29,692 nucleotides of DNA from Catajapyx aquilonaris (lineage: Eukaryota). The notes beneath the pieces were generated by a model. It was not told where the DNA came from. It saw only the letters and a program-made list of their open reading frames with translations, and did no database searches. The translations under genes and the position numbers were made by a program. Positions 1,933-29,549 of this stretch are shown one piece after another. Position 1 is the stretch's first letter; each line of letters begins with the position of its first letter. The DNA lies in contig JYFJ02001098.1 of assembly GCA_000934665.2 (NCBI GenBank), positions 62,001 through 91,692 of the forward strand, written 5' to 3'.

Positions 1933-2653
1933 ATGGTGCGCTTAAATTCGTGTTGCTTTTGCTGCTCTACGCGCACAGGCTCATTAATTTTAGGATCATG
2001 CAGTTTGGTAAGTCAATATCTGTGATGTAATCGCTATAATGCTATACATATTTGTTACACATTGGCTTGTGAATAGATTGCGAGCGTCCTTGGAGTGATA
2101 TGCGCTGGAGCAGTTTTAGCCATGTATGACAAAATAGCTGAGGCCATAAGAAAAAATCCTCCACCAGATGTTCATTCAGCTGACATTGAAAAGTACATCT
2201 CATGTAGGTTGCAAAAAATGTTGCATAGTAATCGTTGCAGAGTAATAACACCTTCCGTTTTTTTTTTGCAGTTGTGCGCATTCTGTTCATTGTGAGCTTG
2301 GTGATATTACTACTAGGACTATTTGTAGCATCTATGCTCATTCATGGGATCAGAAAGGTTACTTATCCTTTTTTTCCATTGCCAGTACATAAGTTGACAT
2401 ATAATTTAAATTACAGGAACGACCGGGACTGATGCTTCCGTACATTGTTGCAAGCGCATTTTCGCTAATTTCTGGAATTGTCATGAACGTCATGGTGATC
2501 ACAAACGGTGGCGACAAGATCACGCCTATTGTCAACATGGTTATTGGTGCTCTCTTTGGCACTTATTACCTCCTAGTTATTTATTCACACTACCGCGATT
2601 TGCGAGACCACGAAGGCAGAACGAGTGTTCCTAACGATAACAAATTTATCTGA
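1933..2653 (+). CDS. Paralog 1: four-TM membrane protein, LAPTM4/DUF4728-like, 174 aa; exons 1933-2007, 2077-2203, 2272-2357, 2417-2653
   Basis: Manual splicing at GT-AG sites gives a continuous frame MVRLNSCCFCCSTRTGSLILG...SMLIHGIRK/ERPGLMLPY...YSHYRDL...KFI*. Exon structure is shared with 8 paralogs. AATAAA at 2813. Confidence 0.9.
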
Positions 2654-3328
2654 AAATTTTCAAACCAATCTGCTACATCATGATTTACATGATTTATCAT
2701 GAGTCGTGATGACATGCACGAAGCATTCCGTATTTACAACAATCGTTAATAATAATTAGCCTTTTGTAGCCATGTACTGCCTTTTTTATACTTCTTGCAA
2801 AGTATAACAATGAATAAAATATTTCGTGTATTATTCACAGAGGCATCAGACTTCATTGGCCTTGCATGTATGTTGTATTGTGTGGCCAGGGCGTGTATTG
2901 CGTTACTATATACTGTCGTGCAGTATCTCCTTTCGGATGGAGGACGTTGGATATAATATAATTTGACGTGTTTGACGTAAGGGAAGTGGGCGGCAATAGA
3001 AATGAGACATGTTATAATTTTGAACCAGGTGTACAGCATTGCATTTGGATTTGCACTTGAATCAGTGAGGAACAACCCGCTTAATGGTGAGTTTATTTTC
3101 TGCTCATATACCTATCTGATGTACTGTACAGTCCGCCTATGCATGTTAATGTGATTAAATATTTAAAAATATGATTCTCCGCTCTTGATAATTATTGTCT
3201 CTTGACTTGTGCAATTTTTATAAGCAGCAGTCATGCTATGGCCAGGCCTTCTGTTCTGGCCATTACATATAATATTTTAATTGAAAATATAATAGGCTTT
3301 GTACTTATAAATTAACAGGTCAGCAATA

Positions 3329-4076
3329 ATGGAAAAAGTGCCTCAAGACCAACCATGCTGCTGCTTCTCTGCAAAAAGTACGGGCATCCTCATTTTAGGA
3401 GTATCCTCACTGGTACGTGTACGTTGCATTGCTGACAGTAATTGACCTGACATGTTTACCTCGATAACAATCCACAGGTTTCAAGCATACTGGTGTTTGT
3501 GAGCTCAGTAGGAGTTCTGGCAACATGGCAGACTATTTCCGAACGCATTCACTGGACTCCACGTGAGACATCTGCAGATCAGATTGATGCATATCTCTTG
3601 TGTACGTATTTGGAATACTGTATATTCAGTAGTATGCACTGTATGGCAACATGTTATTTGTAATAATTCAGTGATTTTTGGGGGGTACAGTTTTCTACCT
3701 TGCCAGCTTCGTTGTTTTGGTTGCGTCGGTTTTGAGCATTGGTGCATCATCCATGTTCATCCATGGGGTCAGAAATGTGAGTTACAATATATTCCTATAT
3801 AAACATTTCATGAAAAACTTTTAAAAATTTCTTCTTCAGGAAAGGTCCACATTTCTGCTGCCGTATATCGCAATGGGCGTATTGGACATCACGGTGGGGG
3901 TTATTATAATAATTGCGCACATGCTGGTTGTGGATGGGGACAACATTATTGCAATCATTAGCATGGTAGTTTTGATAGTTACAGGCACTTACTGTCTAGT
4001 AATGGTTCATTCTTACTATCAGGATCTAAGATCTTACGAGAAATTAATGAATGTAGAATTATTAAAGGGTACTTAA
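3329..4076 (+). CDS. Paralog 2: four-TM membrane protein, 176 aa; exons 3329-3412, 3478-3601, 3691-3776, 3840-4076
   Basis: MEKVPQDQPCCCFSAKSTGILILG...SMFIHGVRN/ERSTFLLPY...SYYQDLRSYEKL...; intron phases 0/1/0; 86-nt exon 3; AATAAA at 4121. Confidence 0.88.
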
Positions 4077-5055
4077 ACCATGAAAGACAGGAATTGCTTC
4101 AATGTACTTATTACTGCCACAATAAAACACGTGATCAGTGTATTTTAGTAGCCGGATGGAAATTTTAATCACCAAGACAAAACATTGCCATGTATTACAA
4201 GTTAGTGTCTGTCAAAGAAAGTTATGGATCTTTATTCCATGCAACCTGTAATTTTTTTTGTCGTTGGTTTTTTTGACGTATGGTACGTACATTAACAAAG
4301 TTGACTAAATAACTTTCATAAAATAGGTAAAAATAATAAGGCAGCTCTCGGTCGAGATAATACTACAAAACAATTTTAAAAACTTCATCAATTCATTTAC
4401 ATTTTCAATATGACTCCTGAAGATTCTCAAATAATTTCTTGTGAAATGGCATACATTGATCGTTCACCGTTTTTCGTCACTCACTCCATGATGGACCGTA
4501 GAGGCTATTTTCTGCTTACTATTTTTGCCTGAGTTGTCTCGTATCTTCATTTTCCTGCGCAGCCGGGGCAGATGACATCTAGTGGACGTTCAGAGAATCA
4601 CAAAATTACTCCTGAATCCACAAAGGGGTATAAAAATAGCCAGAAAAGAGGTCACGGATCAGGTTGTAGAAATAAAGCCACTGTACTGTGTAATGTTGTA
4701 GCACAGGCTAATATAGTGCTATCAAAGACACTTCGGACATACTATTTTAGGGGGTAAATAATAGGCCTCTTTGCGACAGCAAGCGACTCGGGTAAGAAGC
4801 AACTTACAATTTTATACACATCACTGAGTGCAAATGTTCCGGTTCCCACGAGAGACCGGCGACATGTAAAATGCCTATGAAAAAAATCGGCAAAATATTA
4901 AGCACATATCTATAATTCATAGCCTATACGATAATACATTGGCGGGTCACTTTTCGATGTCCGGAGAGGAAAGATAAAAAAAATTGCTATAATGAATGCT
5001 GCCAGTTCTTCAGGGCGATGCCACTTTTACAAAGTGAGTGGGTGACCTTCGTTCT

Positions 5056-5231
5056 GCTCATGCGCCGAATAAAACTGGGTGTGGACGCGGGTCCTCATCA
5101 AAGTGGGGTTATAGTGCGTACTGTGCATGCTATGGTTTGCTATATGAGACTTGGAAAGAAGAACTTGGTTGAAGACCTCTCAACCACTACTTGACGCGGA
5201 AGGATTACAAGATTACGCTAAGAAGACAGAG
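5056..5231 (+). promoter_or_regulatory. Putative promoter and non-coding first exon of paralog 3
   Basis: GCTCATGCGC and GGGTGTGG motifs shared with paralog 4; donor GAG|GTAACT at 5232 and acceptor at 5293. Confidence 0.45.
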
Positions 5232-5310
5232 GTAACTAATGGTCAGTTATTGTTTAGACTTTAGATGACAAGCCAGAGGTTTTCTTTTAACAGGAAATTG
5301 ATCAGGAGAC

Positions 5311-6356
5311 ATGGCGCCTTGCTTGGAGAAGTGCTGCTGCGCTTTTCCGCTAAGGAGAGGGTCCTTAATTATAGGGATTATCAGCCTCGTAAGTGTTTCA
5401 AGTGACCTTGCCAACTACATAGACGTGACAACACACTTTTATTTTCCATATCGATCAGGTTGCGAGCATCTTGGGCACACTGGCCATCGTCGGCACTCTG
5501 GCCATGTGGTCAACCATTGCCAAAAACATCCGAGAGGCCGCCAGACAAGGGTCTCATGACACCCAGATCAGGGCTGAACCATACATTATTCGTACGTATG
5601 TTACATATTACGCGGGTGTAACAGGTTAATATCTTCATAATAAAATAATGTTCATAATACAGTAAAACTTCAATATTATAACGCTCTTCAAGGGTGGTTG
5701 ACCCTTTGCTCGTGGGTGTGTAGCCTGAATTCTCGCAAACATTTTTAAATCGTGGACTCTATTTTTTCAGAAACTCGCACCTACTGCATCCTCTCTCTGG
5801 GAGTGTTTCTCGGTGGAATTCTTGTGGCATCGATGCTTCTTAGGGGCATAATGCAGGTAACTAGCACCAGAATCGTAACGCAGATTTAGTTAAATGGTCA
5901 TGTGGAATTGCTAAAATGAAGACAGCCTCTCCTTATGTTTGATATAATAATCACTCTTATTAAAAGTGCTACATAAAGATATTAATGTGTAATTATAATT
6001 ATTATCATGCTTTATGACCAACACAAATGCTTAATGTGATACGGATACGTTAAAGAATGATGATATTGTTTGGTTAAAATGAACTCATTTGAGCATTTTA
6101 TTGACAGAATCGGCCCGGACTGATGCTGCCTTACATAACGACAGCCACAATCGGAGTGATTTTGGGCATTGTCATTGATGTTTTTTGCATTATGGATGGA
6201 GTGCACCTGATTTCCTCAATTGTTCATCTAACCCTTGGGACCGGACTGGAAACGCACTTCATTGTGGTTATCTACTCTTACTATGAGGAACTTCGCAGCA
6301 ACAGCAAAGAAATAATAAGCGTACCTACTGAGGACCCAGACACGGCCAAACCCTGA
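5311..6356 (+). CDS. Paralog 3: four-TM membrane protein, 181 aa; exons 5311-5388, 5459-5591, 5771-5856, 6108-6356
   Basis: MAPCLEKCCCAFPLRRGSLIIG...SMLLRGIMQ/NRPGLMLPY...YSYYEEL; canonical splice sites and an open spliced frame. Confidence 0.9.
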
Positions 6357-7621
6357 TTGAATTCGAAAATTGAAAGTGCTTCATGTTAGCATGATTGTGC
6401 GTTATGATCTGAACTACCGGTAATTGAAATTGGTGCGAATTGCTGTAACAAACTCGAGCATATTTATACATACGAGTATTTTTAAAGAGTCGTGGAATAA
6501 TGCCTTTAATATGACGAACCTCATATTTGAATAATTGCTAAACCGCATCAAATATTTTAATAGAAGAAAACATAGAGAGTAATAATATAGTTTGTGTACA
6601 AATTATTGATACAATGGCTTCCAAATTATTTTACTGTGAATGTTGAACTGTGGCTTTATATTGTTTGACTGTATCAACAGACTCTAAAATTATATGATTA
6701 CCGGTATATGTCTGTATTCGCTACCAATCTAGTCCATTATCTTCCACTTGTCTTCTTGTCATGCTGCATTATTTTTAATGCCGCAGTTTACATACTGTAG
6801 TTCTAGGCTATATAGATTCTTGATTTCAGGAGTCGTTTTTTAAAAGAGGTGCAAATCCACTGTGATATATTAGCCAGTGTACTTTGATATAATACAGTTT
6901 TTGTGATGTTGAAACGTTGTTGAAATGGGTTATTGCAGACGGTTTCATAAACATCTCGGGTATATAATATATTATTCATTATTATTCAATAACATATTTA
7001 TGTATAGTAAGAAGGCCGGATTTTGGCAAAGCCTGGAAGATAACATTAAAATAATAAAGATGGAAAAATTGACAAGCTTTGAAGCAGTTGAATTTGTTGC
7101 TATCATATTTTTGACGTTAAGGAACGTAGGCTAAATACTCCAGTACAGAAAATGAAAGATGGTATAACATAATGATTGATTCCAGCTTCCAGCCTGATGT
7201 CTTCAGACAATATTATTATTTTCCCAGTAGTACAATGTCTCTATTGTCATGTGAATAATGTGCAGCGTCTACTGTGCATACTTCATGAATTTTTTATGGC
7301 AGAAAATATTATTTTGTGCATTATCTTTTACACTGCATCTTGTACGCTGGTGTTGTAAAATAAACGTTTTGAACAGCCATCCCATAATATATTTTGAAAG
7401 GATATTCTGGATCCCATCCATAATCCCTATGTTATTGTCTAGTATCTATTTCGATTGATTTTAATCAATAATTTACCTCTTCATAGGTCAGAAGAATATT
7501 AGTTATAATGTATCCTAGAAACATTCGAATTTTCTTTCCCATGATTGGCCCGGATTCCTACTGGCTTATATCACAATGAGAGTTACGTACTGTAGGTACT
7601 CTACATACAGTACAGTACATC

Positions 7622-7710
7622 ACATCAGAGTGAAGATTATTATTAATTGCTCACATGCTGGTTGTGAATGGGGATAACATTAGTGCAACCATTGATATAG
7701 TTTTGATAAT
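7622..7710 (+). pseudogene. Degenerate fragment of paralog 2 exon 4
   Basis: acatcagagtgaagattattattaattgctcacatgctggttgtgaatggggataacattagtgcaaccatt... aligns by eye to about 3887-3980 with indels; no other exons found nearby. Confidence 0.75.
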
Positions 7711-7988
7711 GCAATATTTCCTCATTTCTCTCTCTCACCCTTCCACTAATAATGTCTCTTTATAATGGCTCACAAAGGAACATACTTTTCGCAATTAGTT
7801 CACGGTTTACCTAATAATCGTCCATGTCAAACAAACTCCTTCATTAGCCTGTGCTGTCGGCGAAGGTTACATCTAGCGGCTTACAATATAAGTCCTGAAG
7901 CCACAAAGGGTATAGAAATATAGGCAGAAAAGAGGTCACGGTGATGCTATGAACCTTTTACTAGAAGTGAGTGGGCGATGTTCACGCT

Positions 7989-8149
7989 GCTCATGCGCTG
8001 CCGACAACAGGGTGTGGACAGATATTCGTCGTCAAAGGGTGGGTTTGCGCGAGTATGTATTGGGAATGAAGCACGTTGTTGAAGTGTGCTCAACAACATT
8101 ACTGTTTACACTGGAAGGATTACAGCATTGCACACCCTGCTGCCGACGA
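7989..8149 (+). promoter_or_regulatory. Putative promoter and non-coding first exon of paralog 4
   Basis: Homologous to the paralog 3 upstream block; donor GTGAGT at 8150 and acceptor TTTCAG ending at 8247. Confidence 0.45.
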
Positions 8150-8264
8150 GTGAGTTATATGTATACGATTATATATATGGAACCGACAAGCTAATGCAAA
8201 TATCTGGTCAGGTGCTTAATCGATGGTGTGCATTTGTGTTCTTTCAGGAAATTGATCCAGAGAC

Positions 8265-9228
8265 ATGCCTCGCGTGAAGAATTGCTTCTGCATTTTTCCG
8301 ATAAGGAGAATGTCCTTAATAATAGGGGCGATTAGCCTTGTAAGTGCTTTCGGTGACCTTGTCCGTTCCGTCGACCTGACAACAACACTTTTCTCTCAAT
8401 CGATCAGGTTGCAAGCGTCTTGGGCACACTGGCCGTCGTCGGAGCTCTGTCCATGTGGTCGACCATTGCCAAAAGTATCCGAGAGGCAGCCAGTCACTGG
8501 GATTATGACAGCATCATAAGTACAGAATCGTATATTATTGGTGCGTACTAAAGTGTTGTACATTCTGCATTTTTCTATTATAATAATATTCAGGCTACAC
8601 CCTTCAGCAAAAATGAGTCATTTTTGCTGAAGGGTGTAGCCTGAATATTATTATAATAGAAAAAAATTGTGAACTATATTTTCAGAAACACGCACACACT
8701 GCGTCTTCTCTCTGGGACTGTTTCTTGGTGGAATTATTGTGTCATGGATGCTTCTTAGGGGAATAAATCAGGTAACCTCACGCTTAACATCCTTATAACT
8801 AACTGTAAGTGCATCACTGTTCACATAACATTGCGAAATTGGCTATACATTTTTTCAGGATGTTTCATAAATTGATAGCAGGAAAACTAGTATTAAATAC
8901 GCTTTTGGCCCTTAACATGTCGTGCCAAAACTGGAGAAAATAAGGTTAAAACACTAATTTGTGTATTTTTTATTGGCAGAAGCGGCCTGGACTGATGCTG
9001 CCTTACGTAACGACAGCCACAATCGGAGTGATTTTGGGCATTGTTGTTGATGTTTTGTACATTATGGATGGAGCGCATCTGATTTCCCCAGCTGTTCATC
9101 TAACCCTTGGGACCGGACTGGAAACGCACTTTATTGTGGTTATCTACTCTCACTACCAGGAGATCTGCAGCAGCAACAAGAAAAGGATAAGCTTACCTCT
9201 TGAGAATCTAGACACCGTCATATCCTGA
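8265..9228 (+). CDS. Paralog 4: four-TM membrane protein, 180 aa, close duplicate of paralog 3; exons 8265-8339, 8408-8540, 8686-8771, 8980-9228
   Basis: MPRVKNCFCIFPIRRMSLIIG...KRPGLMLPY...YSHYQEI. Exons 2-4 have the same lengths as in paralog 3 (133/86/249) and are visibly similar at DNA level. Confidence 0.9.
8570..8664. repeat. Perfect inverted repeat, 47-bp arms with a 1-nt spacer, in intron 2 of paralog 4
   Basis: 8570-8616 is the exact reverse complement of 8618-8664. Confidence 0.95.
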
Positions 9229-13457: not shown

Positions 13458-13473
13458 GGGGGGGGGGGGGGGG
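13458..13473. repeat. Poly-G tract (G16) upstream of paralog 5
   Basis: Read directly from the sequence. Confidence 0.9.
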
Positions 13474-13503
13474 CTATATGCTGCATGACTACTTTGCGGC
13501 ATT

Positions 13504-13640
13504 TTGCGCATATGGGCATGCGCAGTTTGATCTGTTCAAAGGTGGGGGTGCGACGGCGTGCATGAAACTAGACTGTTTCACTTCGGATTGCGTGTCATGC
13601 GTGAGTGTGCAGGCGAACCCGGTGGATGAAAGACGCGAAG
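13504..13640 (+). promoter_or_regulatory. Putative promoter and non-coding first exon of paralog 5
   Basis: GC-richer island with GCATGCGCA and GGTGGGGG; consensus donor AAG|GTGAGT at 13641; acceptor TTTTCTAG ending at 13778. Confidence 0.5.
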
Positions 13641-13779: not shown

Positions 13780-15020
13780 ATGGAAGACGAATCTGTGTTC
13801 AAGTTGCCGCGACTTACTTCATGTTGTTGCTGCTTTTCGACCCGTATTGGTTCCCTGATCTTGGGGATAATCACTCTGGTACGCTTTGCAATATTTTTGC
13901 GACGATTTTTTTTTCCCCTCCCTTGCTACTTGCATGCACTAATTAAACATTAATGCTTAGGTGGCGAGCGTGCTTGGGTTTCTGGGCGCGGTTTGTGTAC
14001 TGGCGACATGGGGTATGATTGCGAGCGAGATTCGGAAACATCCGCCTGATGAAGCTATTAAGGACGTCGAATCTTACATCAATCGTAAGTTTAAAAACTT
14101 GATTAGCACATTTTTTTTTAAAAAAAAGGTCCTGACATTTTTGAGCAGACAACCCTGATCGATTTCCTTCACAATGCGAACTACATAATGGTAGTGCAAG
14201 TGACAATGAATGGGTTGTTGGCGTGCCTAAACGGAAATTATATATTATTGAATGCTCTTTGATTCATCCTTGATATGGCGAATCTTCATCTGCAAAATTC
14301 CGACCTTTTACAATTGCTTTTTGCAGTGGTGCATGTCCTGATGATCGTCATTCTGGTGGCGTCAGTGTTCGGCATACTTACAGCATCCATGCTCATCCGG
14401 GGAGTGAAAAAGGTGAATAATGTGAACAACATAAAAAAACATGGCCCCCATTAGGCTAATGGATGCTTAATGTAGGGCACGGCCATTTTGAGTCTCGCAA
14501 ACGGCTTGTTGCCACGTGACTCAAAATGGCCGCGTCCACTCCCATTGCGATAATTTTTTAATTATTTAAAACAAGTTCAGTGTGACGTGTTATACAGTGT
14601 AATTAGTAATCCCCGCATTGTGTTAAAAGTACATCGATTACTGACGATATAAGGACCTAGTTTAGGCAATCGCTGCAGTCTTTCTCATAATGAATGTTTC
14701 AATAAAATTTCCTTTACTTTCGACACTTAATTTTTTTAAAACAAATTAAACCAAAGTTATGCTAATTTTCTGCTGATTTATTTGTGTAGGAGCATCCTGG
14801 CCTGATGCTGCCTTACATAGTGATGGGTGCAATCGACCTAATTGTTGGGGTCGTGATGAACATCTTGGCGATCGTGGGTGGAGCCACCATCATCAGCATC
14901 GTCTCCATGGTGCTTGGGACTATTATCGGCATCTACTATCTCCTGGTGGTCCATTCGCACTACCAGGAGCTAAGTGCTCGAGAAGGGAGAATAAGTGTGC
15001 CTTCAGACGGCAGGTTTTAA
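13780..15020 (+). CDS. Paralog 5: four-TM membrane protein, 179 aa; exons 13780-13878, 13961-14084, 14327-14412, 14790-15020
   Basis: MEDESVFKLPRLTSCCCCFSTRIGSLILG...SMLIRGVKK/EHPGLMLPY...HSHYQELSAREGRISVPSDGRF*. The C-tail resembles paralog 1 (EGRTSVPNDNKFI). Confidence 0.9.
14480..14532. repeat. Short inverted repeat with 15-bp arms, possible mini-MITE relic, in intron 3 of paralog 5
   Basis: CGGCCATTTTGAGTC ... GACTCAAAATGGCCG, with imperfect extension on both sides. Confidence 0.7.
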
Positions 15021-18000
15021 GAACCAAGAAAGAAAAAAATAACCACGTTTCCTTATTACACTATGCAGTATTTTTTTGGGCACATTTTTTCATATTACCC
15101 CCCCAATTTTAATCTGGTATTAGAGTATATTCCTATGCAAAGATTTACCAAGTCTTATTCCATCTCATTATAAACTACAAGCATGATAGTTTTCACGTAC
15201 AACTTTTAAAAGTCTTTGAAACTCTCGATTCAGTACAAATCCAGTATTGTTGCATGTGCATTAATTTATTTCTGTCGCGTACTCGTGTGTCCCTTACATG
15301 TTAAACAATTTGTACCTATTTTCAAATATACGATATTTGTTTTTACACGATTACTGGTGCGTGTAAATAATTATTCCTGCCATTTCCAGCAAATAATTCT
15401 GTTGGACGAATTGAAATGAGAAAGGGAATTTTTCTTTTCAATTTTCTTTTCTCGTCTTGCGATTAAGGGTTGCGTGGTCGATGATGTATTCAGAACAAGC
15501 GATTCATACTTGTTGTTCATATATAATTAATAACTTGAGCTAGATTTACTATGGATCATGCAACCCAAGCTAAATTACAGAATATTGATGGAATGGTGCA
15601 CTGGCCAGCTAAAAGTGATATCGGGTTAAGTTTAGGCTGACGGAAATGATTGTCATTAAATGTGTTCAATTTTTTTTGCATCTTCCATTATTGTGAGTGA
15701 ACCATGACCGAGTATTTTGATTGACTTTTAACTCCACTACCGCATGTTTCAGGAAGTTCCGTGAGACCACAAGAGTTTCCTACAGTTTCCAATAACATTT
15801 TGGGCTATTCGACAATTTCACGATCTATTATCGCCGAAAGTCCCCCGTAACAAGGAAACTTGTTAGAATAAATAATTCAGGTATCAAACAACGTGCATGT
15901 TACTCCCAGGGTGAAGTAGAGGAATCCGTTCCCAATGGTCATTCCCGTCAATATTAAAGTTACGTGCTGAGACTGAAAAAAATGGGAGAAAATTGGCGTA
16001 CTGTGCACATGAAATATATTATTCCGGCAGCTACGTGCAACTCCGTACAGTATAAAACTTGTATACTGTAGGCCACTGTACTGTTTGTAGAGTCATCATT
16101 GCATGTTATCCACTAGTCGGGAAATCCCATTAGAGTTTTACTATATACTGTAAAATAAGTATGAAACTGGGATTGGATAATTCATGAAGTATTTATTATT
16201 TCAGTAACTTGGATACATCAATTGAATAATTGAGTATACCTGGTTACCTTGTTCGTTGCTTGTTGAAAACTAAATACGCGCATTTTTGAATCGACGTTTG
16301 TGTATGCATTGTTATTGTTGTTGTAATTAATGTTATTATTGTGACTATATACAGAATAATCCCAACGGTTCATTTTTTTTGCCTGAGTGAAACTGCCTGA
16401 ATAGAATTCGCCGGGGTTGTATTATGTTGTCCTACTTTTTGTCCTATTTATTTCTGCTCCACACATGAATGATTAAAGTACATCAAATCTTGACGAAGTT
16501 GGGGAACTCAATCTTCCATAGATTGATCGAGCAAAACTTGACGTTTCGCGTCAAGGTTTGAATGGGCCTGAGTCGAAGTACAGTTAAGCGTGAAATGCCT
16601 GTCAATTGTATGTAATGTCGACAGATGTCACTCTGATGTTTCCGATTGAACTAATGGCTGGCTTTTTTTTTCCTTGTTAAGTTTATGCATCCTGCACGTC
16701 AGGTGATCCACGTGGCACCGAAGATTGTCGGGTTGCATAAATTGCAGGATGGCATTTTTTACTCGCGACGAATGTACTGTACACGTAACATCCTCTTCGT
16801 AACGAAGCAGAATCGACATCAACAAAGAAAGCTCTCTTGGAATTCCTTGACGCTCACTCTCCTGTACTTGTTATTTGCTCGTAAAAGTTTGTAAATACTC
16901 GCGGTTTTCTGTACGAACAAACAAGTTAAAGTTCCATATCCGAGCGGCAAAGACATTAAGCCCAAGGTTCACATTACGGCAAACAATGGTGACACTTGAG
17001 GAGGTCCCCTGACCACAACTCCCAACTCCCAAGAAAAAAGGTCTGAACTAAATGAATAGCTACATTATTTACCGGTTAGTTATACCTATGTATATGATAT
17101 ACATGCATTTTATGCCATTCCTCAAAGAACATTAACTTATTTAGGTTCGGCTAAGGCGCATACCAACGGCTGTGTTTGTGAATATCATGCACACTACGAG
17201 TCGGTACCCTCGTCATCGTGTCACGGCCCATGGTAAAGCTGCAGAGCTGGAAGCTATAAATTAACATGCGTATGACATTTACAACTTTGCTTTACAGGTT
17301 TATTTCCTACTTATGGTACTGCCATTTTGAATATTCCACTTCTGATGGGCTATCGCGGAAAAAAACGATTCCAATAATAGGTTTACAGCACATGTGTTGA
17401 TCGCTGATGCTGAACATCTCGAGGACAACCTGTCTCTAAGCACATCGCAGTTGGATTGTACGGAATATCCTCCATACAGTGTGTTACTCTGACATGTTCC
17501 TGTAGTAAACCAGCAATTACTTGTTTGTTATCAAGCCTGATAATATTTTTAACAATAAATCATGCAGTGGATATTTCATCCAGCAGGTTGTGTTTCAGAC
17601 GTGCAGTTTCTACTGCACAGTTTATAATTACGGTGCGACTACATGAAGGTGTCGGTAATACACACCCTGCAATGTCCCATGCCCCCCAATCTCATTATTA
17701 TAATTGACTATTACTCCAAAGCACACCGGCTCACTAGACAGGCAACAACTCACTGAATAAAACATTCTTTTTCTGACCTATAAGTGACCTTCTTCCAAAC
17801 CACGTTTGAACATTTTTTGAAATTCCGCAAAAAAATTCCGCCTTTTCGCTAATAAGTGAATTGGTAATAATTGGCACTTAGTTTCTGCAACAAGCAAACT
17901 TAACTACTTCCGATAGGCGTATCAAACCCATACTTGCAGCAGAATGTTCAGGTGGCCATTACCGATAAATAATTTTGGCTCTCATCCTGTCCATTAGCTA

Positions 18001-18856: not shown

Positions 18857-19000
18857 CGCAGGCGCAGTTGGGCGGGACTTGATGTGGTGACGGAAGATGG
18901 GGGCTGAGGAGAAGGGGGTTGTTGGCGTCGTTTCATTCCAGAACCTGGTCGGAGTTGGAAGTGAAGTGACGGACATTTGACAAGCGGTTTCCTATAATAG
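18857..19000 (+). promoter_or_regulatory. Putative promoter and non-coding first exon of paralog 6
   Basis: CGCAGGCGCA plus GGGCGGGA in a G-rich island; donor TAG|GTAACT at 19001; acceptor TTCCAG ending at 19952. Confidence 0.4.
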
Positions 19001-19826: not shown

Positions 19827-19860
19827 TCTCAGGTTTCGTCTAGCTAGACGAAACCTGAGA
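19827..19860. repeat. Perfect 34-bp palindrome
   Basis: TCTCAGGTTTCGTCTAG|CTAGACGAAACCTGAGA with no spacer. Confidence 0.95.
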
Positions 19861-19973
19861 GCTTCTAGATGGAAATAATATTTACACAAGCATAGCACAA
19901 AATGTGGTAGGTTTTTGCGTCAGCAAGCTGTCCTATAATCTCTAAATTCCAGGAAAGACAACGAACCAACACA

Positions 19974-20782
19974 ATGCCTGTCCTCAACACGTGTTGCTTC
20001 TGCTGCACTACCCGCACCGGTACCCTCATTCTCGGGATTCTTAACTTGGTAAGATAAGTCAATGTAATTGTTGTGTATATGACGCTAATTTTTCTGGTCC
20101 ATATATAGATTGGTTCCGTGTTTGGATTACTTGGTTGCATTATTGTTCTGGCGTCATGGGATGGCATCACCAAGGATTGGAGGAAGGAAGCAGCTGCTCA
20201 AGGAGTCAACATTGAAGAGACTATTACGTGTAAGTGCTATTGCGGTTCATAAAACGTGGATATCTGGTGGTGTTAGGAAAACACAATAAGTTATACAAAG
20301 GAACTTGATAGCAACTTGCAGGATTAATGAAGGCTAATTTATTATTTCCATTATCAGTTCTGCTTGTTACCTTCATAATCATGATGATCTTGTGCCTGTT
20401 CTTCATCGCCGTGGCATCCATGCTCATACATGGAGTCCGAGAGGTTAGTCCATTTCACACTAAATTAGCCACGAAAGTATATCGATGCTTTTGATACGAA
20501 ATGTGGATTTAACCAGCATAATTATGATGATTACAAATTTTTCAGATGCGTCCCGGATTTATGATGCCTTACTTGGTGGTGACCGTGATCGGTTTGGTCC
20601 TGGGCACGATCTTGAACATCGCGACATTGGCAACCGGAGGATCAGTACTGGCAGGATTGATGGGTCTCATTGTTGGAAACGCCATCGGCATTTACTTCTT
20701 CCTGGTGATCTACTCGTACTACCAGGAGTTGCGGGAAGGAGGCGGAACAGCCGCTGTCCCGCCTAACAGCGCCAAGTTCTAA
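19974..20782 (+). CDS. Paralog 6: four-TM membrane protein, 172 aa; exons 19974-20048, 20109-20229, 20358-20443, 20546-20782
   Basis: MPVLNTCCFCCTTRTGTLILG...SMLIHGVRE/MRPGFMMPY...YSYYQELREGGGTAAVPPNSAKF*; AATAAA at 21077. Confidence 0.9.
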
Positions 20783-22499
20783 ACGCGTGCCTTTTTGTGT
20801 GCCATTATACATGCCATGTTGTGTTTCTTCCAGGTGTCATTGTACGTAACTTTAGAATATGGTTGGTGCAATTGCTCAGGCCCAAGATTTGTATACTCGA
20901 TCAACCATGTTTCTTCACTTGGAAACTGGTTGCTGGAGTAATAGATCTGTCAAGGCTTCCCGTAACACACAAGCTCGGCCTGTGCACATTGCACCAACCT
21001 GCGTATGTGTTGCCAATTTTTCTTGCCATTATTTTGATAATAGCAGAAAAAAAGTATCCAGTGTGCTTCAGATAAAAATAAACATTGTTGGTATTCAGAT
21101 CGTAAGTCGTTGCCGGATATAGATTGACGTACTGTTTCCAGTAAGCTGCATTTGCCACATGCACGCTCACAGTACAAGAAAATGTTATAGATCATGCAAG
21201 GGAATACGGTAATGACTGACGTTAATATTCCATAATATTATTATTGCTGGAAGAGTTGACTGGGAATGATTTGAATTCATGATTTTTGTTAATGTGTCGG
21301 TTCCAAAAGTGATGTAAAGTGAATTGTTTTGCTCTCATACAAGTAGTTTATTGTTGCATTGAGCGTACGTGGAGTAACAAGAGAGACGATTGAGACGCGA
21401 GCAATAATGACACAGGCTGTACTTGTAATAGCATTAGTGTAAAATAAAGCAAATATGGTCGAATTGGAGAATGTGTTACCATTTAATAACAAATATTTTG
21501 TTTCGTAGCCTACTGACTTGTCATTATTGAAAATCATTAATTCAATTCATTTCTAAGCAACTCCTCAACATGTTCCTTAAAATGTGTTTTGTAACTCTTT
21601 ATAATGCCTTATCATTAAAGTTTCTCTATAGTATTATCCAGAGTCATTTATATGAACAGCAACTTACCCACATGTGATTTATGTCCAAAAGGCTGTATTC
21701 AAGACTGTATCGGACCAATAATTAAAAACTTTGTATATCCAAGTTGTTGGTTTCATTTTTTTGAAGGAAAAAGCTAGGTCAAACTCAAAAGCTGCACCTA
21801 AATAAAACTGTCACTTGCAGTTTGGATATTGAACTATCATGATGACGCAATTGGGAACCATATTATTTTAAAACATTGTTAATCTTAATGATTATGCCTG
21901 GGTGTTGTAAAGTTGAAACACTGATTGATCACATAGTACAGTACATACCTAAGCAATCTGATCTCTAAAATTATATTGCACCATTTTCTGCTTAAAGTAG
22001 AGCAACCTTGCGAGAATAGTGTGTAAGAGCAGATGTGGTAGACTGTAGAGAGCATACACTCCAGGGCAATATTGCATTGTACGGGAACATTTATTACCTG
22101 ATGATCAGCGAAGAGAAGAGGACGGGGGCCGTGTTTCTCTATTGAAGATGACACGTCGAACCTGGGGGATGATTAAGAATTATTTAATATAGGGTAATTA
22201 TAAGAGTGTGATGAAATACGTGCAACAAAACGATGAGATGGATGTAATGAATACATAAAGAGTACACAGAATAAATATTAACGCTGCAGGGAGCCCATCA
22301 TCTCCTGACCATGTCACCCAGGGGTGCTTTGTAGTTTGTTGAGGGGCCCATCACCCGGACGACGGAGTATCACAAGGGTGTTTGGAACAGAACGCTATTA
22401 CACCCAACCAGACGAACTGCCAGTCTTGGAATCACTGCCTTAAACATCGTGATAACATCTGTATATTCCAAACTGGCGACTCCTACACACCAATTCACA

Positions 22500-23263
22500 A
22501 TGTTTGACGGTGACAACACGTCTGACACGTGTTGCTTCTGCTGCAGTACCCGCACAGGTACCCTTATTATCGGGATAATGTGCTTGGTAAGACAGTATGT
22601 CAGAGTAATTGACCTGCACTTGTACAAGCCATTTTTTACGCCCTTTCGTTCATAGGTGGTTGCCCTGTCCGGATTAATTGGGTACGTCATTCTTCTGGTG
22701 ACAGGAGACGAGTCCGTCAAGATCTACATCGAGTCTATTTATGGCGAAGATGTTTTAGAGTCTTATGCGCGTAAGTGTGCACCGCGTGTATTTTATCTTC
22801 CATAATCTCTGTTCTCGAAGACGTATGCTTCATGAGGCAGGTCCAGGCAAGAAAAGAAGTTTCATGTGTTCTTTTTCCAGTCCTGGACGAGTCTGACGTC
22901 CAGATCGAGTGTTTTATACTCATTTAGGTGCCCATTATTTCAGATTAATTACATTACTCAGGCACAGTCATTTTTGTACATAAAAATGCTACAAGTAGGT
23001 TTATTTCCCGACAATAAATTTTAATGACGCCTAACTTATTATTTTCATTACAGTCAGACCTCTTATCACAATAATTGCACTGATCATGGGTCTTCTCTTT
23101 GTCGTCGTGTCATCTATGCTCATACACGCAGTCCGAAAGGTCAGTTCATTTCACTCGTACTTGTAATAATTGATATGACCTTACCAGACTTGCCCGTTAT
23201 TATGCCAGCCCCAGACATTTTGCTATGGGGATTACAATTGCACTGCTCTGCAAGGATGTGGAT

Positions 23264-23353
<90 letters not shown>

Positions 23354-23742
23354 TAATTCCGCAGATGAGGCCTGGAAGGATGGTGCCATTCATGGCGTTC
23401 ATCGTGGCAAACCTAATCATTGGCTCGATTACCACCTTCTTGAGCATAGTCAATGGCACAGTAACTTACGCAGCATTGCTATTTGTGGTCGTGATAGATG
23501 CCATCGGGAGTTACTGCGTCCTGGTGATGTGCTCATACTACCGGGAGTTGAAATATGGCTTCGACGGAACAGCCGAAACAGGGCACGACGAAAATGGATA
23601 CGAAAGACTCATCGGAACAGAATACGGAAAAGTTGACGAGAGAGTCGGAACAGAAGACGGAACACGATCAGAAACAGTCGGAACAGAAGACAGAACACCA
23701 TCAGGAACAGTCGGAACAGCAGTTGTCCCGTCTAAAAGTTAA
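22500..23742 (+). CDS. Paralog 7: four-TM membrane protein with extended acidic repeat tail, 221 aa; exons 22500-22586, 22656-22770, 23054-23139, 23365-23742
   Basis: MFDGDNTSDTCCFCCSTRTGTLIIG...SMLIHAVRK/MRPGRMVPF...SYYREL...VVPSKS*; AATAAA at 23973. Confidence 0.87.
23264..23350. repeat. Compound microsatellite (TAC)17(TAA)12 in intron 3 of paralog 7
   Basis: Read directly; ends 14 nt before exon 4. Confidence 0.95.
23611..23719 (+). repeat. Coding minisatellite, 33-nt (11-aa) period, about 3.3 copies
   Basis: Units begin (A/G)TCGGAACAG at 23611, 23644, 23677 and 23710, encoding IGTEYGKVDER/VGTEDGTRSET/VGTEDRTPSGT/VGT. Confidence 0.85.
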
Positions 23743-24144
23743 AAGTTCTGAAGGTTCCTTATGCGTCATTATCCGTGCCATGCTGTCTCTTCCAGATGTT
23801 ACTGTAGGCTCCTGAATATGAGCAGCATGGGTCAACTGCCCATGCCCAAGATTTGTTGCAAATGATATGTAACGTCGCCTCCTAACACCAAGTCTGTGTC
23901 TGCATATTGGTCAAGATATTGGTCGACTACTTGCCCATTTGGTATTAGCAAAAAAAAAACAAGTATGATTCAAATAAAATTAACCAGTGTTGTCATCAAG
24001 ATCGTTAGTCGGTTCTGGATGTATAATTGCCATACTGGTTTCAATGTCAGCATTGCCATATGCAGGTCAACATGTTCGACCAGAAGAAAGAGGCTTGGAT
24101 GCTACGTAATAATAACAACACGATATTTGTCCATAAAAATTCAT

Positions 24145-24810
24145 CGCTATTTCCAAGTTCCTTAGGTCACTCGTAACTCATAATGACCATTCACTTCGTC
24201 TGAAATATGCTCTTGACCTTGGGGCAGCCAATAAAACCAAAATATCCAAAATACATTTCCGAATCAAGTGGGCTGAAATCACACTCCACTATAGAAATAT
24301 TGTTATGTCCACATTTTGAAGAAAATGAGTTATATCCTTCACTGGGTAGCTCAGTCCACCATAGAAGAATGGTATTTGGACCAAAATTGGCGACGTAGTG
24401 TTAAAATTTCCATCAATATTGTGATAGCTTTTATCTTACAAAATGTGATCTTCTTTTGGTTCTCCTGTAAAATTACCTTTTTGTGACGTACAATACTCCT
24501 ACTGGTGGAGTGCGAAATGCTGTTAGACCATATCGGATTTTGCTGATAAAAATCACAGGTGTAGTACACACACCTATGCCATAACGTCAGATATCAAATT
24601 AAATCCATATTGCTCAATACCGTGGGGAGGGGGAAAATCGCGAGAAAATGAGGCCTTTTTTGGATATTTTCTTCGGTTAGTGAAAATTCCCAAAACCCAA
24701 TCAACAAAATGTACGGTACACTATCAAATAAAAGAGAATGACGAGGAAAATCCGACTAGGGAATTAGTTTTACTCAAAAATGTAACGAGAAAAACGTGTC
24801 TGAAAAAAAT
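24145..24810. mobile_element. Candidate insertion of about 0.67 kb in the 3' flank of paralog 7 (boundaries approximate)
   Basis: Interrupts a block that is contiguous downstream of paralogs 6 and 8; homology resumes at TTGACTGGGAATGATTTGAATT near 24821. No TIR or TSD identified. Confidence 0.3.
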
Positions 24811-25207
24811 CTGCAAGAATTGACTGGGAATGATTTGAATTAATACATTTTCAACAGCATATTAGTCCAAAAGCGATGTAAGGTGAGTTGTTTCTGTAGC
24901 TCTCTCAAGAGTATAGTGTTGTGTTGCGCTGACAGAGTTGGTGCAGTAACAAAGACGCGAACGAAACGATGTCACTGGGACATAGCACAACTTTTAATTG
25001 ACGCTATTGGCTCATTTAAGGATACCTGTGCTTTGTTGAGGGCTCCATCACCCAGGCGACGGAGTATCACCAGTGTATTTGGAACAAATGTTATTATTTA
25101 CACCACCGTGCACCATCAGGACAAACTGGCTCGGAATCACTGACTAAACATCGTGATAACATCATCTGTATATTCCAGACTGTCAGACTGCTATACACAC
25201 CAACACA

Positions 25208-25855
25208 ATGATTGTCATGGACAATTGTTGCTTCTGCTGCAGTACCGGCACCGCTACCCTTATTATGGGAATAATTCTCTTGGTAAGATGTGTCCGTGTG
25301 ATTGATATGCACTCGTAAGCCGATTCTCTATCTTTCATTCACAGCTGATTGGCGTGCTCGGAACACTTTCGTTAAGCTTGATTCTGCTGGGAGAGCGGCT
25401 CATGGTCCAGCGCTTGATCAAGAGTGTTAATGACCCAGTGGACGGCCCACTAGTTGTCGAAAACCTCACTGCAAGGCATTATTCGTGTAAGCGTGCATCA
25501 CTTCTATTTGTCTTTCATTGCCTAAATAATGCACCCTGATGATCTCTAAGACGTCTGCATCATGTGTGGCAAAACACTAGTTCCATGTGATGGTTTTCCA
25601 GGCCTGGAACGAGTCTGAGGCGGTCTGGTGTGTTTAATACCAATTTAGGTGTCCATTATGTCAGATTAATTGCGCTACTATAATGAACAGCCATTATTGA
25701 TTTTAAAAACTTCCCAATCATGACTTCCTGAATTAATTACTTCCAATTAATTATTTTCATTACAGATGTCAAAGCCGGTTTCGCAATTGCGCTGATCATC
25801 TTTTTTTTCTTCGCAGTCTTGTCATCCTTTCTCATATACGGAGTCGCAAAGGTCA

Positions 25856-25938
<83 letters not shown>

Positions 25939-26257
25939 TCTACAGAAGCGTCCCGGAATGATGAAGCCTTTCATGATTTTCATCGGGGCAATCCTGTCCA
26001 TTTGCTTGATTGGCACCTTATTTAGCGTGATCACAGGCAGATTGTCGCATGTAGCATTGTCATATATGATCGTGGGAGAGGCCATTGGGATTTATCTCCT
26101 TGTGGTGATCTTCTCACACTACCGGGAGTTGCGAGCTGAAGGCGAAACAGGATACGGAACAGGACAAGGAAAAGGAAATGGATCAAGACGTGGAACAAGA
26201 AATGGCGCAAGAAATGGAAGCGTTGTACCAGCAGATTTCCTGTACTACATGAACTAA
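25208..26257 (+). CDS. Paralog 8: four-TM membrane protein with Gly/Arg-rich tail, 204 aa; exons 25208-25282, 25345-25486, 25766-25851, 25946-26257
   Basis: MIVMDNCCFCCSTGTATLIMG...SFLIYGVAK/KRPGMMKPF...SHYREL; AATAAA at 26511. Confidence 0.87.
25857..25937. repeat. Microsatellite (TAA)27 forming nearly all of intron 3 of paralog 8
   Basis: Read directly from the sequence. Confidence 0.95.
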
Positions 26258-27052
26258 AACATGCCTTATCCAGCATTATCCATGCCACGTTGTATCTTCC
26301 AGATGCCACTGTACCTGTCTTCAGAAAATATGCGCAGGTTGGGGCAGCTGACCAGACCCAAGATTTTTTTTTTTTTGTAAAATGATCTGTAGTCTTTTCC
26401 TAACCCACACTCGGCCTGTGCACCAAACCTGTGCATGAGTTGGTAGCACTTCTAAAACAAAATTACCATTATTTTGATATGAGCCAAAGAAAAATGTCTA
26501 GTGTACTTCAAATAAAATTAACCAGTGTTGGTTTTCAGATCATAAGCCGCTTCCGGAAGTAGATTGATGTATTGTTTCCAGTTATTTAGCAACATTGCCA
26601 CATATTCAGACCAACAGTGGACTACAATAATGTTATAAGTCATACGGTAGACAAGAAGAAGAGGTAATGATTGTATATTGTTAATGATAATGTTCTTACT
26701 GCTGGAATAATTGGCCACGAATTATTTGAATTAATGATTGTTTAGCCACATCCCAGTGCAAAAGTGTTGCAGAGTGAGTTGCTTTTCTCTCCTATAAAAG
26801 TAGTTTATTGTTACACAGTGCAATACGTACAGCAGAGAATAGACGGGAGAGTACACAGTAAATTCAACGAGAGACACAATCATCTCGGGGACCATGTCAC
26901 TCATAGTGCTTTGTTGACTGACGCATTACCCAGGAGACGGATTTTCACTAGGGTATTTGGAACAGAAGGTTATTATTTGCATATGCTCAAATCGTGACCA
27001 CAATCATCATCTGTATATTCCAGACTGTCCGATTGGTCTACAGATCAACACA

Positions 27053-28514
27053 ATGATTGTCCTTGACACTTGTTTCTACTGCTTCAGTGTCCGCACCGGT
27101 ACCTTGATTATTGGGCTAATTTGCTTGGTAAGATAATGTCAGCGTAATTGACGTGCACTCGTAAGCATTTTTTTTCCTTTCGTTCATAGATGATTGGCGT
27201 GCTCGGATCACTTTTGACCATCCTTATTATGTTATATGGGAGGCACACCATGAAGCGCTTTATCAAGAGAGTATATGGAGATGAGGCTGCAGATTCTAAA
27301 ACATGTAAATGTGCATCACTGTTATTTATTTTTCATTACCTAAATGCATCCTGTTCTTGAATACGTATGCATCATGAGACAGGTCGAAGCAGGATAACGC
27401 AAGTTTAGTGGAATGGTTTTCCAGTTTGAGATCCTAGTCGGGTGTTTTATATCCATTTAGGTGCCAATTATTTAAGATTAATTGCGCTACTCAGACACAT
27501 ATATTTTCACAAAGAAATGCTACTTCCGAATCATAACCTGATGAATTAATTAAGCCCAATTTATTATTTTCATTACAGTTGTCACTGTTGCTTTAATAAT
27601 AATGCTGCTCCTCGGTCTTCTCCTCGCAATCTGGTCATTCCTGCTCATATACGGAGTCCAAAAGGTCAGTTTATTTCAGTTGACATATTAGTATTTCCAT
27701 ACTCCAGGGCTCTACCCTATATACAATATAGCTCAACATGTAACTTACGTCACTCTACTAACTTGCCACACTTGGTATATAACCGAGAGGTAGCAGGTTT
27801 TTCAGATTCAATCCCTACATAATGAGGCATAGTAAATAACATTTATTTACATATTATCATGCATGTTATCCTTAGCCTATAAACAATGAGCAATTTTAGC
27901 TGTGTCCTATGAATATTCATAGGCGCTGATTCAGATTTTTTTTCTGTCAGTATCGATGTTTTTGTAACAATCCTTGCTTCTCCGAAGTCAGAATATTTAT
28001 ATATTTTGGCGTTCATTTTCTTGTAACAAACCTATACTCGTTTGCCTTTTACATAGGCCTATTTCTCAACGACATCTTATGCATACCATATATTTAAATA
28101 TTATATATTTTCCAGAGTTTTGGCTTTTCTACTGCTGTAACAATAGGGCCTCATAGGGCTGACACAGGTCATCCATAAATTAAGCCATATTAGCCATTAC
28201 CTACTCACAAATGACAAATTATGTGGAATTTGAACGTGTATGATTTTGCTGCCATAAAAATGCCAATTACTCAAAAAAGACTGAGCGATAGAAAAAAAGC
28301 AGTTAAGAAATATGAAATAAGCGCAAAAAATGCAATTATAATCGCATTCTTGTACACGTAACGAAAAAAAAAAATCATTTTTCGAACATCGTGACAGTAT
28401 CATCGATGAAAGACATTAACGTACTTTCCATTTACATCGTGCTAACCACATGGCTTATTTTATTTTGTGACAATATTATTGCACTGTGCTGCAAGGAATG
28501 TGGATTTAACCTGC

Positions 28515-28602
<88 letters not shown>

Positions 28603-28879
28603 TCCGCAGAAGCGTCCCGGAATGATGAAGCCTTTCATGATTTACATCATGGCAAACATGGCCATTGGCTGTTTGAGCACCATAGTGAGCGTGTTGACCG
28701 GCAAGCAACCGTCCGAAATATTGGTACTTATGGTCGTGATAAACTCCCTTCTGAGTAATCTCCTCCTGGTGATCTATTCTCACTACCGGATGGTGAAACA
28801 TGAAGTCAGAGAAGTCGGAGCACCAGGACGCGTTTTAGGACGAGTAGGCCTACGCATAACAGGACATGGAAGACGATAA
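27053..28879 (+). CDS. Paralog 9: four-TM membrane protein, 181 aa; exons 27053-27127, 27190-27304, 27579-27664, 28610-28879
   Basis: MIVLDTCFYCFSVRTGTLIIG...FLLIYGVQK/KRPGMMKPF...YSHYRMV...GRR*; canonical splice sites, intron phases 0/1/0. Confidence 0.86.
28516..28602. repeat. Microsatellite (AAT)29 in intron 3 of paralog 9
   Basis: Read directly; abuts the acceptor TCCGCAG. Confidence 0.95.
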
Positions 28880-29468
28880 GGAGCATCCGAAGCAGCCAGT
28901 GTCCCATCTGTAACAAATAAAAGTGCTGAAGGTTCCTTATCCGTCACGATTCGTGCCATGTTGTCTGTTCCAGATGTCACTGTAGTCCTTCCGGATGGAG
29001 GACTCCTTTGTGATTTTTGCTATTGGTTTTTCCAGCAAATTTATTTCTGCCACAGTGACAGTGAAGCCAGGAAGTACTGTATACACGTATACATAATCTC
29101 TTGATTACGGCATGATGAATTTGAAGCTACAACACTTCTAATTCGTATGATAAAAGCAGTTTTTTTAAATGAGGTTCGGTGAAGATTTTTTACTCCAACA
29201 GAACCATTTGTTACGTCACCATTGTTTCATAACATTTTTCTAGAAAAGTTTGATTTCTTGAGAGGTCTTGAGTCGCTCTAGTCTTGAGTGTCCATGATGT
29301 TGTAAACAGCCCGGGGAGACCATTGTTGAGGGCCATCACCAGGGTGTTTGGAATACATAACAGACCGTTTGCACCCACCCGGACGAACATACAGTCTTGA
29401 AATCCCTGTGTAAACGTTGGGCCCATCTCTGCAAATTCCATGTCCTATACGACTTTAACACCAACACA

Positions 29469-29549
29469 ATGTATGTCCTCAAGAGTTGTTGCTGCATATT
29501 CAGTACTGGCACCGGTAGCGCCATTGCAGGGATCAGTACATTGCCATTG
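29469..29549 (+). CDS. Paralog 10, coding exon 1 only (remainder outside the window, or truncated)
   Basis: CAACACAATG start context as in paralogs 6, 8 and 9; MYVLKSCCCIFSTGTGSAIAGISTLPL followed by the donor GTAAGA. The upstream block (about 29320-29400) is homologous to those before paralogs 7-9. Confidence 0.7.

Follow-up and report, generated by a model that had tools for sequence, protein, structure and literature searches.

Does a stretch of DNA without long open reading frames (ORFs) hide a gene family behind splicing, and what has kept its members intact while their sequences changed so strongly? This question is raised by a locus of Catajapyx aquilonaris (assembly GCA_000934665.2, contig JYFJ02001098.1, positions 62,001 to 91,692 of the forward strand). 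The whole stretch of 29,692 nucleotides (nt) that was analyzed is called the window, and all positions below are counted from its first letter. The window is AT-rich, with a GC fraction of 0.35-0.44. It carries a birth-and-death tandem array of at least 10 genes on the same strand, named c1 to c10, which has grown by local duplication. The products are assigned to the DUF4728 family of small tetraspan proteins, and we regard the array together with this assignment as close to certain.

Gene models of the array

The Cys-cluster, RPG-P[Y/F] and SxYxEL motifs were located by a six-frame motif scan. They were found on the + strand only, in an order that repeats along the window. Gene c1 was read by eye, and c2 to c9 were assembled as GT/AG-bounded open exons of matching phase that were scored against c1. 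Nine complete + strand genes were obtained between 1933 and 28879, each with four coding exons of 75-99, 115-142, 86 and 231-378 nt. The third coding exon is 86 nt long in all nine copies, the intron phases are 0/1/0, and GT..AG borders are present in 27 of the 27 introns, whose lengths range from 59 to 945 nt. Each gene has a single frame from ATG to stop and encodes 172-221 amino acids (aa), and the protein identity between pairs of copies is 19-68%. The original prediction had claimed nine spliced ORFs and a tenth first exon with a shared exon architecture, all on the + strand; these were rebuilt by coordinates. The motifs that it named (Cys cluster, RPG..P(Y/F), YxEL) are present, and the strong divergence that it noted elsewhere fits the measured identities. 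When the nine proteins were compared with the window by tblastn (expectation value, E, <= 0.01), just two extra family pieces appeared, namely the first exon of c10 and a relic at 7637-7711.

The array starts with c1 (1933..2653, 174 aa; coding exons 1933-2007, 2077-2203, 2272-2357 and 2417-2653) and c2 (3329..4076, 176 aa; exons 3329-3412, 3478-3601, 3691-3776 and 3840-4076). These are followed by c3 (5311..6356, 181 aa; exons 5311-5388, 5459-5591, 5771-5856 and 6108-6356) and c4 (8265..9228, 180 aa; exons 8265-8339, 8408-8540, 8686-8771 and 8980-9228). Downstream of c5 and c6 lie c7 (22500..23742, 221 aa; exons 22500-22586, 22656-22770, 23054-23139 and 23365-23742), c8 (25208..26257, 204 aa; exons 25208-25282, 25345-25486, 25766-25851 and 25946-26257) and c9 (27053..28879, 181 aa; exons 27053-27127, 27190-27304, 27579-27664 and 28610-28879). 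The last gene, c10, is represented by its first coding exon (29469..29549, 27 codons, ATG at 29469, donor GTAAGA), and its remainder lies past the window end or behind a high-copy repeat. All of these genes are on the + strand.

The exon 2 donor of c7 and the exon 2 and exon 3 borders of c9 were set by homology and consensus, not by RNA. Alternative exon 2 donors of c7 and c9 with similar or higher scores were dropped on homology. Likewise, the top-scoring candidate acceptor for c9 exon 3, at 27555, was dropped for 27579, where the acceptor sequence agrees with that of c7 and c8 and the exon comes to 86 nt.

Assignment to the DUF4728 family

Exon 4 alone was compared with the DUF4728 profile PF15860. 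A match to positions 22-91 of the 91 profile positions was found in eight of the nine copies (E 2.6e-5 to 0.016, 16.3-25.2 bits; E 1.1e-4 for c1 and 2.6e-5 for c2), and exon 4 of c7 gave no match. These scores are under the 26.7-bit cut-off; profile positions 1-21 fall in exon 3. A profile of the nine exon-4 translations was then searched against 1.84 billion representatives, and 59 matches were obtained at E <= 0.001, mostly proteins of 140-230 aa with the match in the C-terminal half. Thirty of the 59 were scanned, and PF15860 was found in 29 of them and reached the cut-off in 23. The top profile match, P0001 (1783 aa, MTMR GRAM-domain, 30 short stretches), is without PF15860 and was set aside as a spurious repeat match.

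Among 42 full-length relatives, PF15860 was found in all 42, DUF7027 in 32 and Mtp in four (E <= 0.01). Scored against a profile built from these PF15860-matching relatives, the nine spliced proteins reach 88-164 bits, with 157 bits for c1, 109 for c2, 121 for c3, 103 for c4, 164 for c6 and the lowest value, 88, for c9. All nine copies have the same best outside match, P0002 (65-171 bits; 29-47% identity, the 47% with c6). P0002 is a 172-aa protein from a 1088-nt Logan contig, and its PF15860 score of 31.1 bits is above the cut-off.

Two to five Cys residues are present within the first 30 residues of c1-c9, and CC or CxC occurs in the same range in 29 of the 42 relatives. The P of RPG...P[Y/F] is invariant in the nine copies and is followed by Y in six, by F in three and by W in none; in the relatives this place is taken by W (24), Y (11), F (two) or another residue (five), so that P followed by an aromatic residue is common in the Pfam family. 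S-x-Y is invariant inside SxYxEL in the nine copies, and the pattern V-x-x-S-x-Y-x-E-L is kept. Judged by sequence, c1-c9 are members of the DUF4728 (pasiflora/Fire exit) tetraspan family with a PY/PF variant. The exon 4 matches and the PF15860 matches of the relatives bear out the DUF4728 half of the original prediction.

The LAPTM4-like half did not hold. No match to Mtp (PF03821) was found for 12 window exon pieces even at E <= 10, and Mtp matches the four relatives weakly (best E 6.6e-5), which amounts to a distant sequence link. The [LP]PxY motif, through which LAPTM proteins bind Nedd4, occurs in none of the nine copies, just as had been remarked from the sequence, and six of the 42 relatives have one in the last 60 residues. 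LAPTM identity is ruled out by the missing Mtp match and the missing [LP]PxY motif. The likeness to LAPTM4A, LAPTM4B and LAPTM5 (PMC3214061, PMC6348303) lies in the four transmembrane (TM) segments and in a proposed adaptor-type role with other membrane proteins. A Cys-rich start of vertebrate LAPTM4 is also named in the original prediction.

The pasiflora/Fire exit family is described in PMC4582180 as nine Drosophila tetraspan members of 169-258 aa. Pasiflora1 and Pasiflora2 are core components of septate junctions, a role demonstrated for these two fly proteins only. Two motifs are given for the family, namely PW where TM3 starts and VxSQYQ where TM4 ends, and both are called absolutely conserved in the Pasiflora1 orthologue group. 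The array products are like this family in being small, with four TM segments, no signal peptide, predicted cytosolic ends and a larger first outer loop; they also share a P-aromatic pair at the TM3 start, V-x-S-x-Y at the TM4 end and relatives in DUF4728 (PMC4582180). They differ from it in that six window copies have PY and three have PF where the fly family has PW. A Pasiflora1 orthologue is ruled out, as PW is missing and V-[IVM]-x-S-[HY]-Y-[QRE] stands in place of VxSQYQ. Orthology of the array to a particular fly member was not resolved by a quick tree. Another fly protein of the pasiflora family is Ikebana (CG15098), which is described in bioRxiv 10.1101/2024.04.13.589362 as a LAPTM4A-like four-TM protein with predicted Mtp and DUF4728 and both ends intracellular. 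Its single fly gene has been proposed to act in Flower-dependent cell competition, and its likeness to the array is one of description.

The family is known and named, and the array is an additional member set. The pasiflora/DUF4728 family is conserved across animals and barely studied. DUF4728 is scarce in the full-text literature, where three papers matched it and none matched PF15860, PF22954, IPR031720 or DUF7027. Tandem arrays or fast evolution of the family are not described in the available parts of PMC4582180 and bioRxiv 10.1101/2024.04.13.589362. With at least 10 genes, the local array exceeds the whole fly family of nine members reported in PMC4582180. No annotated protein of the array was returned by the protein-homologue search with c1 exon 4 or by the exon-4 profile search.

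A related case was found in the beetle Carabus blaptoides fortunei. The gene model CBL_01154 (P0021; profile E 1.7e-5) has 899 aa and five DUF4728 stretches, which suggests a tandem family array fused by gene prediction, and thus that such arrays exist in other animals. This protein is a distant, uncharacterised relative of the window copies. Since no annotated array protein was returned and five units are fused in the beetle model, arrays of this kind may be missed or fused by gene predictors. P0016, in which an HTH_psq domain is fused to the last two TM helices, also looks like a gene-prediction artefact.

Splicing of c5 and c6

Contigs of two sequencing runs were placed on 9693-29692, a range that leaves c1-c4 outside. 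One of them, X1, is a DNA run, and the other, X5, is a small public run whose kind is not recorded. The public runs listed for the window were four DNA runs of one sample and X5, none of them recorded as RNA. Six GT..AG joints were found in X5 contigs and in no X1 contig, and all of them are at predicted c5 or c6 borders or at a leader. For this reason X5 behaves as complementary DNA.

Gene c5 (13780..15350, + strand, 179 aa) has exons 13780-13878, 13961-14084, 14327-14412 and 14790-15020 and a 3' untranslated region (UTR) to at least 15350. X5 contig 9 shows the joints 13878|13961 and 14084|14327 and then runs over 14788-15350; the third joint is implied by this layout and was not tabulated. 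Gene c6 (19953..21555, + strand, 172 aa) has its acceptor at 19953, coding exons 19974-20048, 20109-20229, 20358-20443 and 20546-20782, and a 3' UTR to approximately 21180-21555. X5 contig 12 shows the joints 20048|20109, 20229|20358 and 20443|20546 together with the leader joint, and X5 contig 13 extends the 3' end. The leader joint, 18998->19951 (cut +2; about 19000 to 19953), is of the GT..AG type with a short side of 52 letters. It leads to a 5' non-coding leader exon at 18949..19000 on the + strand, 952 nt upstream, with a donor after 19000 and an undefined exon start. The gene models of c5 and c6 are validated by these contigs. They are the two copies with such RNA cover, and both agree with the splicing that had been predicted.

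A pyrimidine-rich AG acceptor lies 1-32 nt 5' of the ATG in eight of the 10 copies (c1-c6, c8 and c9). Spliced-leader trans-splicing, which was prompted by the position of this acceptor, is ruled out for c6 by the position of its leader, 952 nt upstream within the window itself. A G-rich stretch at 18841-18930 lies directly 5' of the c6 leader exon and may belong to a promoter or to the 5' UTR.

Growth by local duplication

Self-comparison of the window revealed a second copy of 3886-7380 at 7622-10517. The duplicated unit comprises two genes, c2 and c3: c4 is the copy of c3, with 68% protein identity, and the copy of c2 has decayed to a frameshifted fragment. This relic of c2 exon 4, called c2' (7622..7708, + strand), has 81.5% identity over 92 nt to 3886-3977 by blastn and a tblastn E of 0.001. 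It no longer has the SxYxEL motif, nor the P of LPY. Similarly, a unit of about 2 kb is present three times, as c7, c8 and c9. Exon 1 of c6 and c10 has 69-83% nt identity with that of c7-c9, and exon 1 of c10 has 69-71% nt identity with exon 1 of c6 and c8.

The quick tree, from which 19 matches were left out for length, joins c3 and c4 with a support of 100 and groups c6, P0002 and c7-(c8,c9) weakly (82). As the tree is mostly unresolved, with 29 of its 48 inner branches open, no duplication order relative to outside species was drawn. The lineage-specific expansion of the original prediction is weakly shown at the sequence level: all nine copies share the same best outside match, but the tree does not settle it.

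Predicted topology and fold

Four hydrophobic segments with a mean hydropathy of 1.1-2.7 follow a polar, Cys-rich N-terminus in c1-c9. The first extracellular loop (EC1) has about 21-30 residues, the TM2-TM3 loop is basic, and the TM3-TM4 loop (EC2) has about six residues. Because the TM2-TM3 loop is basic, the positive-inside rule places the N- and C-termini in the cytosol. An SVP-like motif ends the C-terminal tail in most copies. The predicted cytosolic tails are lengthened by coding tandem repeats in c7 (33 nt x 3.3, 23612-23719) and c8 (24 nt x 2.2, 26168-26219). The distant relative P0048 has a far longer repeat tail, so tail growth by repeats recurs in the family.

AlphaFold2 was used to predict the structure of P0002 from a 42-row alignment. 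The model has a predicted local distance difference test score (pLDDT) of 91.8 and a predicted template modelling score (pTM) of 0.79, with four long helices (13-40, 54-93, 97-124 and 128-163) and, within the first loop, a short one. Nothing was found at E <= 0.001 when this model was compared with the PDB by Foldseek, and the best template modelling scores were those of Kei1 (TMq 0.51-0.52). In a wide structural search, near-full-length matches were limited to Tspan15 (8esv_B; Z 11.3, root-mean-square deviation (rmsd) 3.8, 136 residues aligned), Kei1, the small subunit of yeast inositol phosphorylceramide synthase (9ivc_B; Z 11.1, rmsd 3.2, 140 aligned), CD53 (Z 10.5) and CD9 (Z 10.2); for helical bundles, a Z under about 13 may reflect a shared arrangement alone. 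The family profile found nothing below E 0.03 among PDB sequences, the best match being a designed protein at E 0.037.

Tetraspanins are defined by a CCG motif in the large second extracellular loop. Unlike them (PF00335), the array products have no large EC2 domain, and it is the TM bundle alone that is alike.

Selection on the copies c6 to c9

Synonymous (dS) and nonsynonymous (dN) divergence was calculated by the Nei-Gojobori method (NG86), and their ratio, omega, was estimated by maximum-likelihood one-ratio codon models compared with omega=1. By NG86, dS is 0.32-0.64 and dN 0.48-0.65 within c6-c9, with ratios of 0.80-1.49. The corresponding values for c3-c4 are 0.24, 0.19 and 0.77. The divergence of intron 2 in c7-c9 (0.31-0.44) resembles the dS of the same copies (0.32-0.46), and synonymous sites are therefore a fair neutral yardstick.

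The codon models gave an omega of 2.0 for the whole gene in c7-c9 (180 codons; twice the log-likelihood difference, 2dlnL, 15.65; p 8e-5) and of 1.54 in c6-c9 (161 codons; 2dlnL 7.88; p 0.005). For the core of c7-c9 without the tail, omega is 2.1 (155 codons; 2dlnL 14.61; p 1.3e-4). It rises to 2.56 in the TM segments (102 codons; 2dlnL 15.56; p 8e-5) and is 1.4 in the non-TM core (53 codons; 2dlnL 1.11; p 0.29). Four codon models gave 1.6-2.3 for the core and 1.8-3.5 for the TM segments, and omega > 1 was stable under GY, MG and MGK with F1X4, F3X4 and F frequencies. When omega=1 was simulated on the fitted trees, the observed value was reached in none of 300 replicates, either for the core (maximum 1.88) or for the TM segments (maximum 2.36); the maximum of an earlier run of 60 replicates was 1.70.

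The changes within the membrane are of a restricted kind. In c7-c9, 76 of the 102 TM columns are variable, and 59 of these 76 vary only among apolar or small residues, leaving hydropathy unchanged. This indicates selection on the young copies to stay four-TM proteins, with a residue turnover above the neutral rate. Under neutrality, a lineage would keep the ATG, the open frame and 12 splice nucleotides with a chance of 3e-4 to 3e-2, indels uncounted. Selection had been predicted to keep the copies intact, and this low chance agrees; the purifying form expected for it does not fit c6-c9, where omega exceeds 1 and is highest in the TM segments. A dN/dS near 1 across the TM segments had been named as speaking against such selection. 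The values in c6-c9 are significantly above 1, which rejects both plain conservation and neutral decay. Positive (diversifying) selection in c6-c9, rather than decay, is accordingly considered quite probable.

Several points weigh against a fast-evolving array of functional adaptors. Some of them would be explained by neutral birth and death, in which only c5, c6 and perhaps c1 are functional, c7-c10 are silent duplicates drifting to pseudogenes, and the high dN/dS is lost constraint. The c2' relic demonstrates that copies do decay in this array. The AG acceptor that precedes the ATG in the other copies is mutated in c7 and c10, and c9 has SHYRMV, a degraded form of SxYxEL, and has lost its SVP tail motif. 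Expression is shown for two copies only, since no X5 contig covers c7-c10 and c1-c4 lie outside the range compared, which has no bearing on whether these copies are expressed. Lost constraint, however, predicts an omega of about 1, against the 2.0-2.6 observed and its absence from the simulations. The chance for c7, c8 and c9 all to stay intact would be about 1.4e-3 x 4e-4 x 2.7e-2 before indels are counted, and the 31-42 gap columns of intron 2 show how frequent indels are in the introns. TM hydropathy is also maintained. Neutral birth and death is therefore judged improbable.

Other points fit conserved paralogues with divided labour, under purifying selection throughout, for which omega > 1 would be an artefact of the alignment, the few sequences, multi-nucleotide changes or selection on synonymous sites. 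Omega is 0.66 over all nine copies and lies below 1 in c3-c4. The values above 1 are carried by three to four sequences with a single omega per run, and the tests were made without site or branch-site models, polymorphism or orthologues. Synonymous sites are saturated in seven of the 36 NG86 pairs, and the exons are short (75-142 nt), so that splicing signals could lower dS. On the other hand, the TM segments of c6-c9 align without gaps, with exon borders and motifs as anchors. The dS of c7-c9 agrees with the intron divergence, so synonymous sites are not slow, and the result is stable across codon models and frequency settings. An artefact of this kind appears unlikely.

The remaining adverse points concern function and membership. 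No consistent signal of 100-degree helical periodicity was found in the TM variability, and no partner-binding face is evident from it. Membership of the spliced proteins was judged through the profile of the 42 relatives, not directly by the PF15860 cut-off. Palmitoylation, sorting, localisation and partners of the products are inferred.

Proposed mechanism

By analogy with Pasiflora in septate junctions and with LAPTM4, an adaptor of transporters and enzymes, the products may be small lateral scaffolds or adaptors that would bind partner membrane proteins through their TM helices, with the N- and C-termini facing the cytosol. The juxtamembrane Cys cluster is probably palmitoylated, and YxEL at the end of TM4 may be a YxxPhi sorting signal. 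The ancestral, conserved role would probably rest with the older copies c1, c5 and c6, which are the copies nearest to the outside relative P0002, and new or changing partners are probably what the young copies are adapting to. This scaffold mechanism is held tentatively, at somewhat less than an even chance. The explanation as a whole, a birth-and-death DUF4728 array with fast copies c6-c9 and products acting as lateral scaffold or adaptor proteins, is judged on balance the likely one.

A different account of the same omega values, which sharpens the receptor, immune or sensory idea of the original prediction, is a variable recognition repertoire of the immune or sensory type, similar to clustered MS4A genes, whose ligands would be changing external or intramembrane molecules such as pathogen membrane proteins. 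Gene-wide omega > 1 with intact ORFs is typical of immune, reproductive and chemosensory families. Such a repertoire would also fit the tandem array with birth and death and the repeat-extended C-terminal tails of c7 and c8. The outer loops are tiny, however, and the replacement excess lies in the TM helices and not in the loops, as the non-TM core result indicates. Structurally, FcεRI β of the MS4A group is a weak match (8k7t_B and 8y81_B in Foldseek at E 1.5-1.9, TMq 0.35), and CD20 did not turn up in Pfam scans of the exon pieces and relatives. A recognition repertoire of this type is considered very unlikely.

A more far-reaching reading is that c6-c9 would be a tetraspan repertoire engaged in an arms race within the membrane plane. 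Positive selection would then act on the TM helices themselves because they contact fast-changing partners, either host receptors that evolve rapidly or membrane proteins of pathogens or symbionts. If true, the family would be an invertebrate recognition or restriction module of a new, intramembrane kind; we give this a low probability. The dN/dS near 2 of the young copies is concentrated in the TM helices, which are an uncommon site for positive selection, and this points to partner binding in the membrane. If positive selection holds, the array offers natural variants for finding binding partners, and the TM-centred dN/dS > 1 is the aspect most worth pursuing.

Other features of the window

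No RNA family was found in the window by Rfam at gathering thresholds, and nothing was found at E <= 0.01 when 15 other ORFs of 80-121 aa on both strands were scanned with Pfam. Intron 3 has a trinucleotide microsatellite at its 3' end, next to exon 4, in three copies: 23264-23357 with (TAC)18 then (TAA)14 in c7, 25857-25938 with (TAA)27 in c8 and 28516-28602 with (AAT)29 in c9. Intron 3 of c8 is 94 nt long, of which 82 nt are pure (TAA)n, and is therefore without an ordinary polypyrimidine tract.

At 10157-10473, X1 and X5 each have a contig in which 63 nt (10158-10220) are swapped for 23 letters and 228 nt (10245-10472) are omitted. As the ends are not GT..AG, this is a structural variant or a paralogous copy at the DNA level and not splicing. 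The contig depth of the DNA run rises from about 35 to more than 2000, with many loose ends, at approximately 24116-24670 between c7 and c8 and at 29640-29692 just 3' of c10 exon 1. These two regions are high-copy repeats, probably transposable elements. Intron 2 of c4 contains a 95-nt near-perfect palindrome at 8570-8664 (98.9% self-complementary) that is not in the paralogous intron of c3, and it looks like a small hairpin-type insertion resembling a miniature inverted-repeat transposable element.

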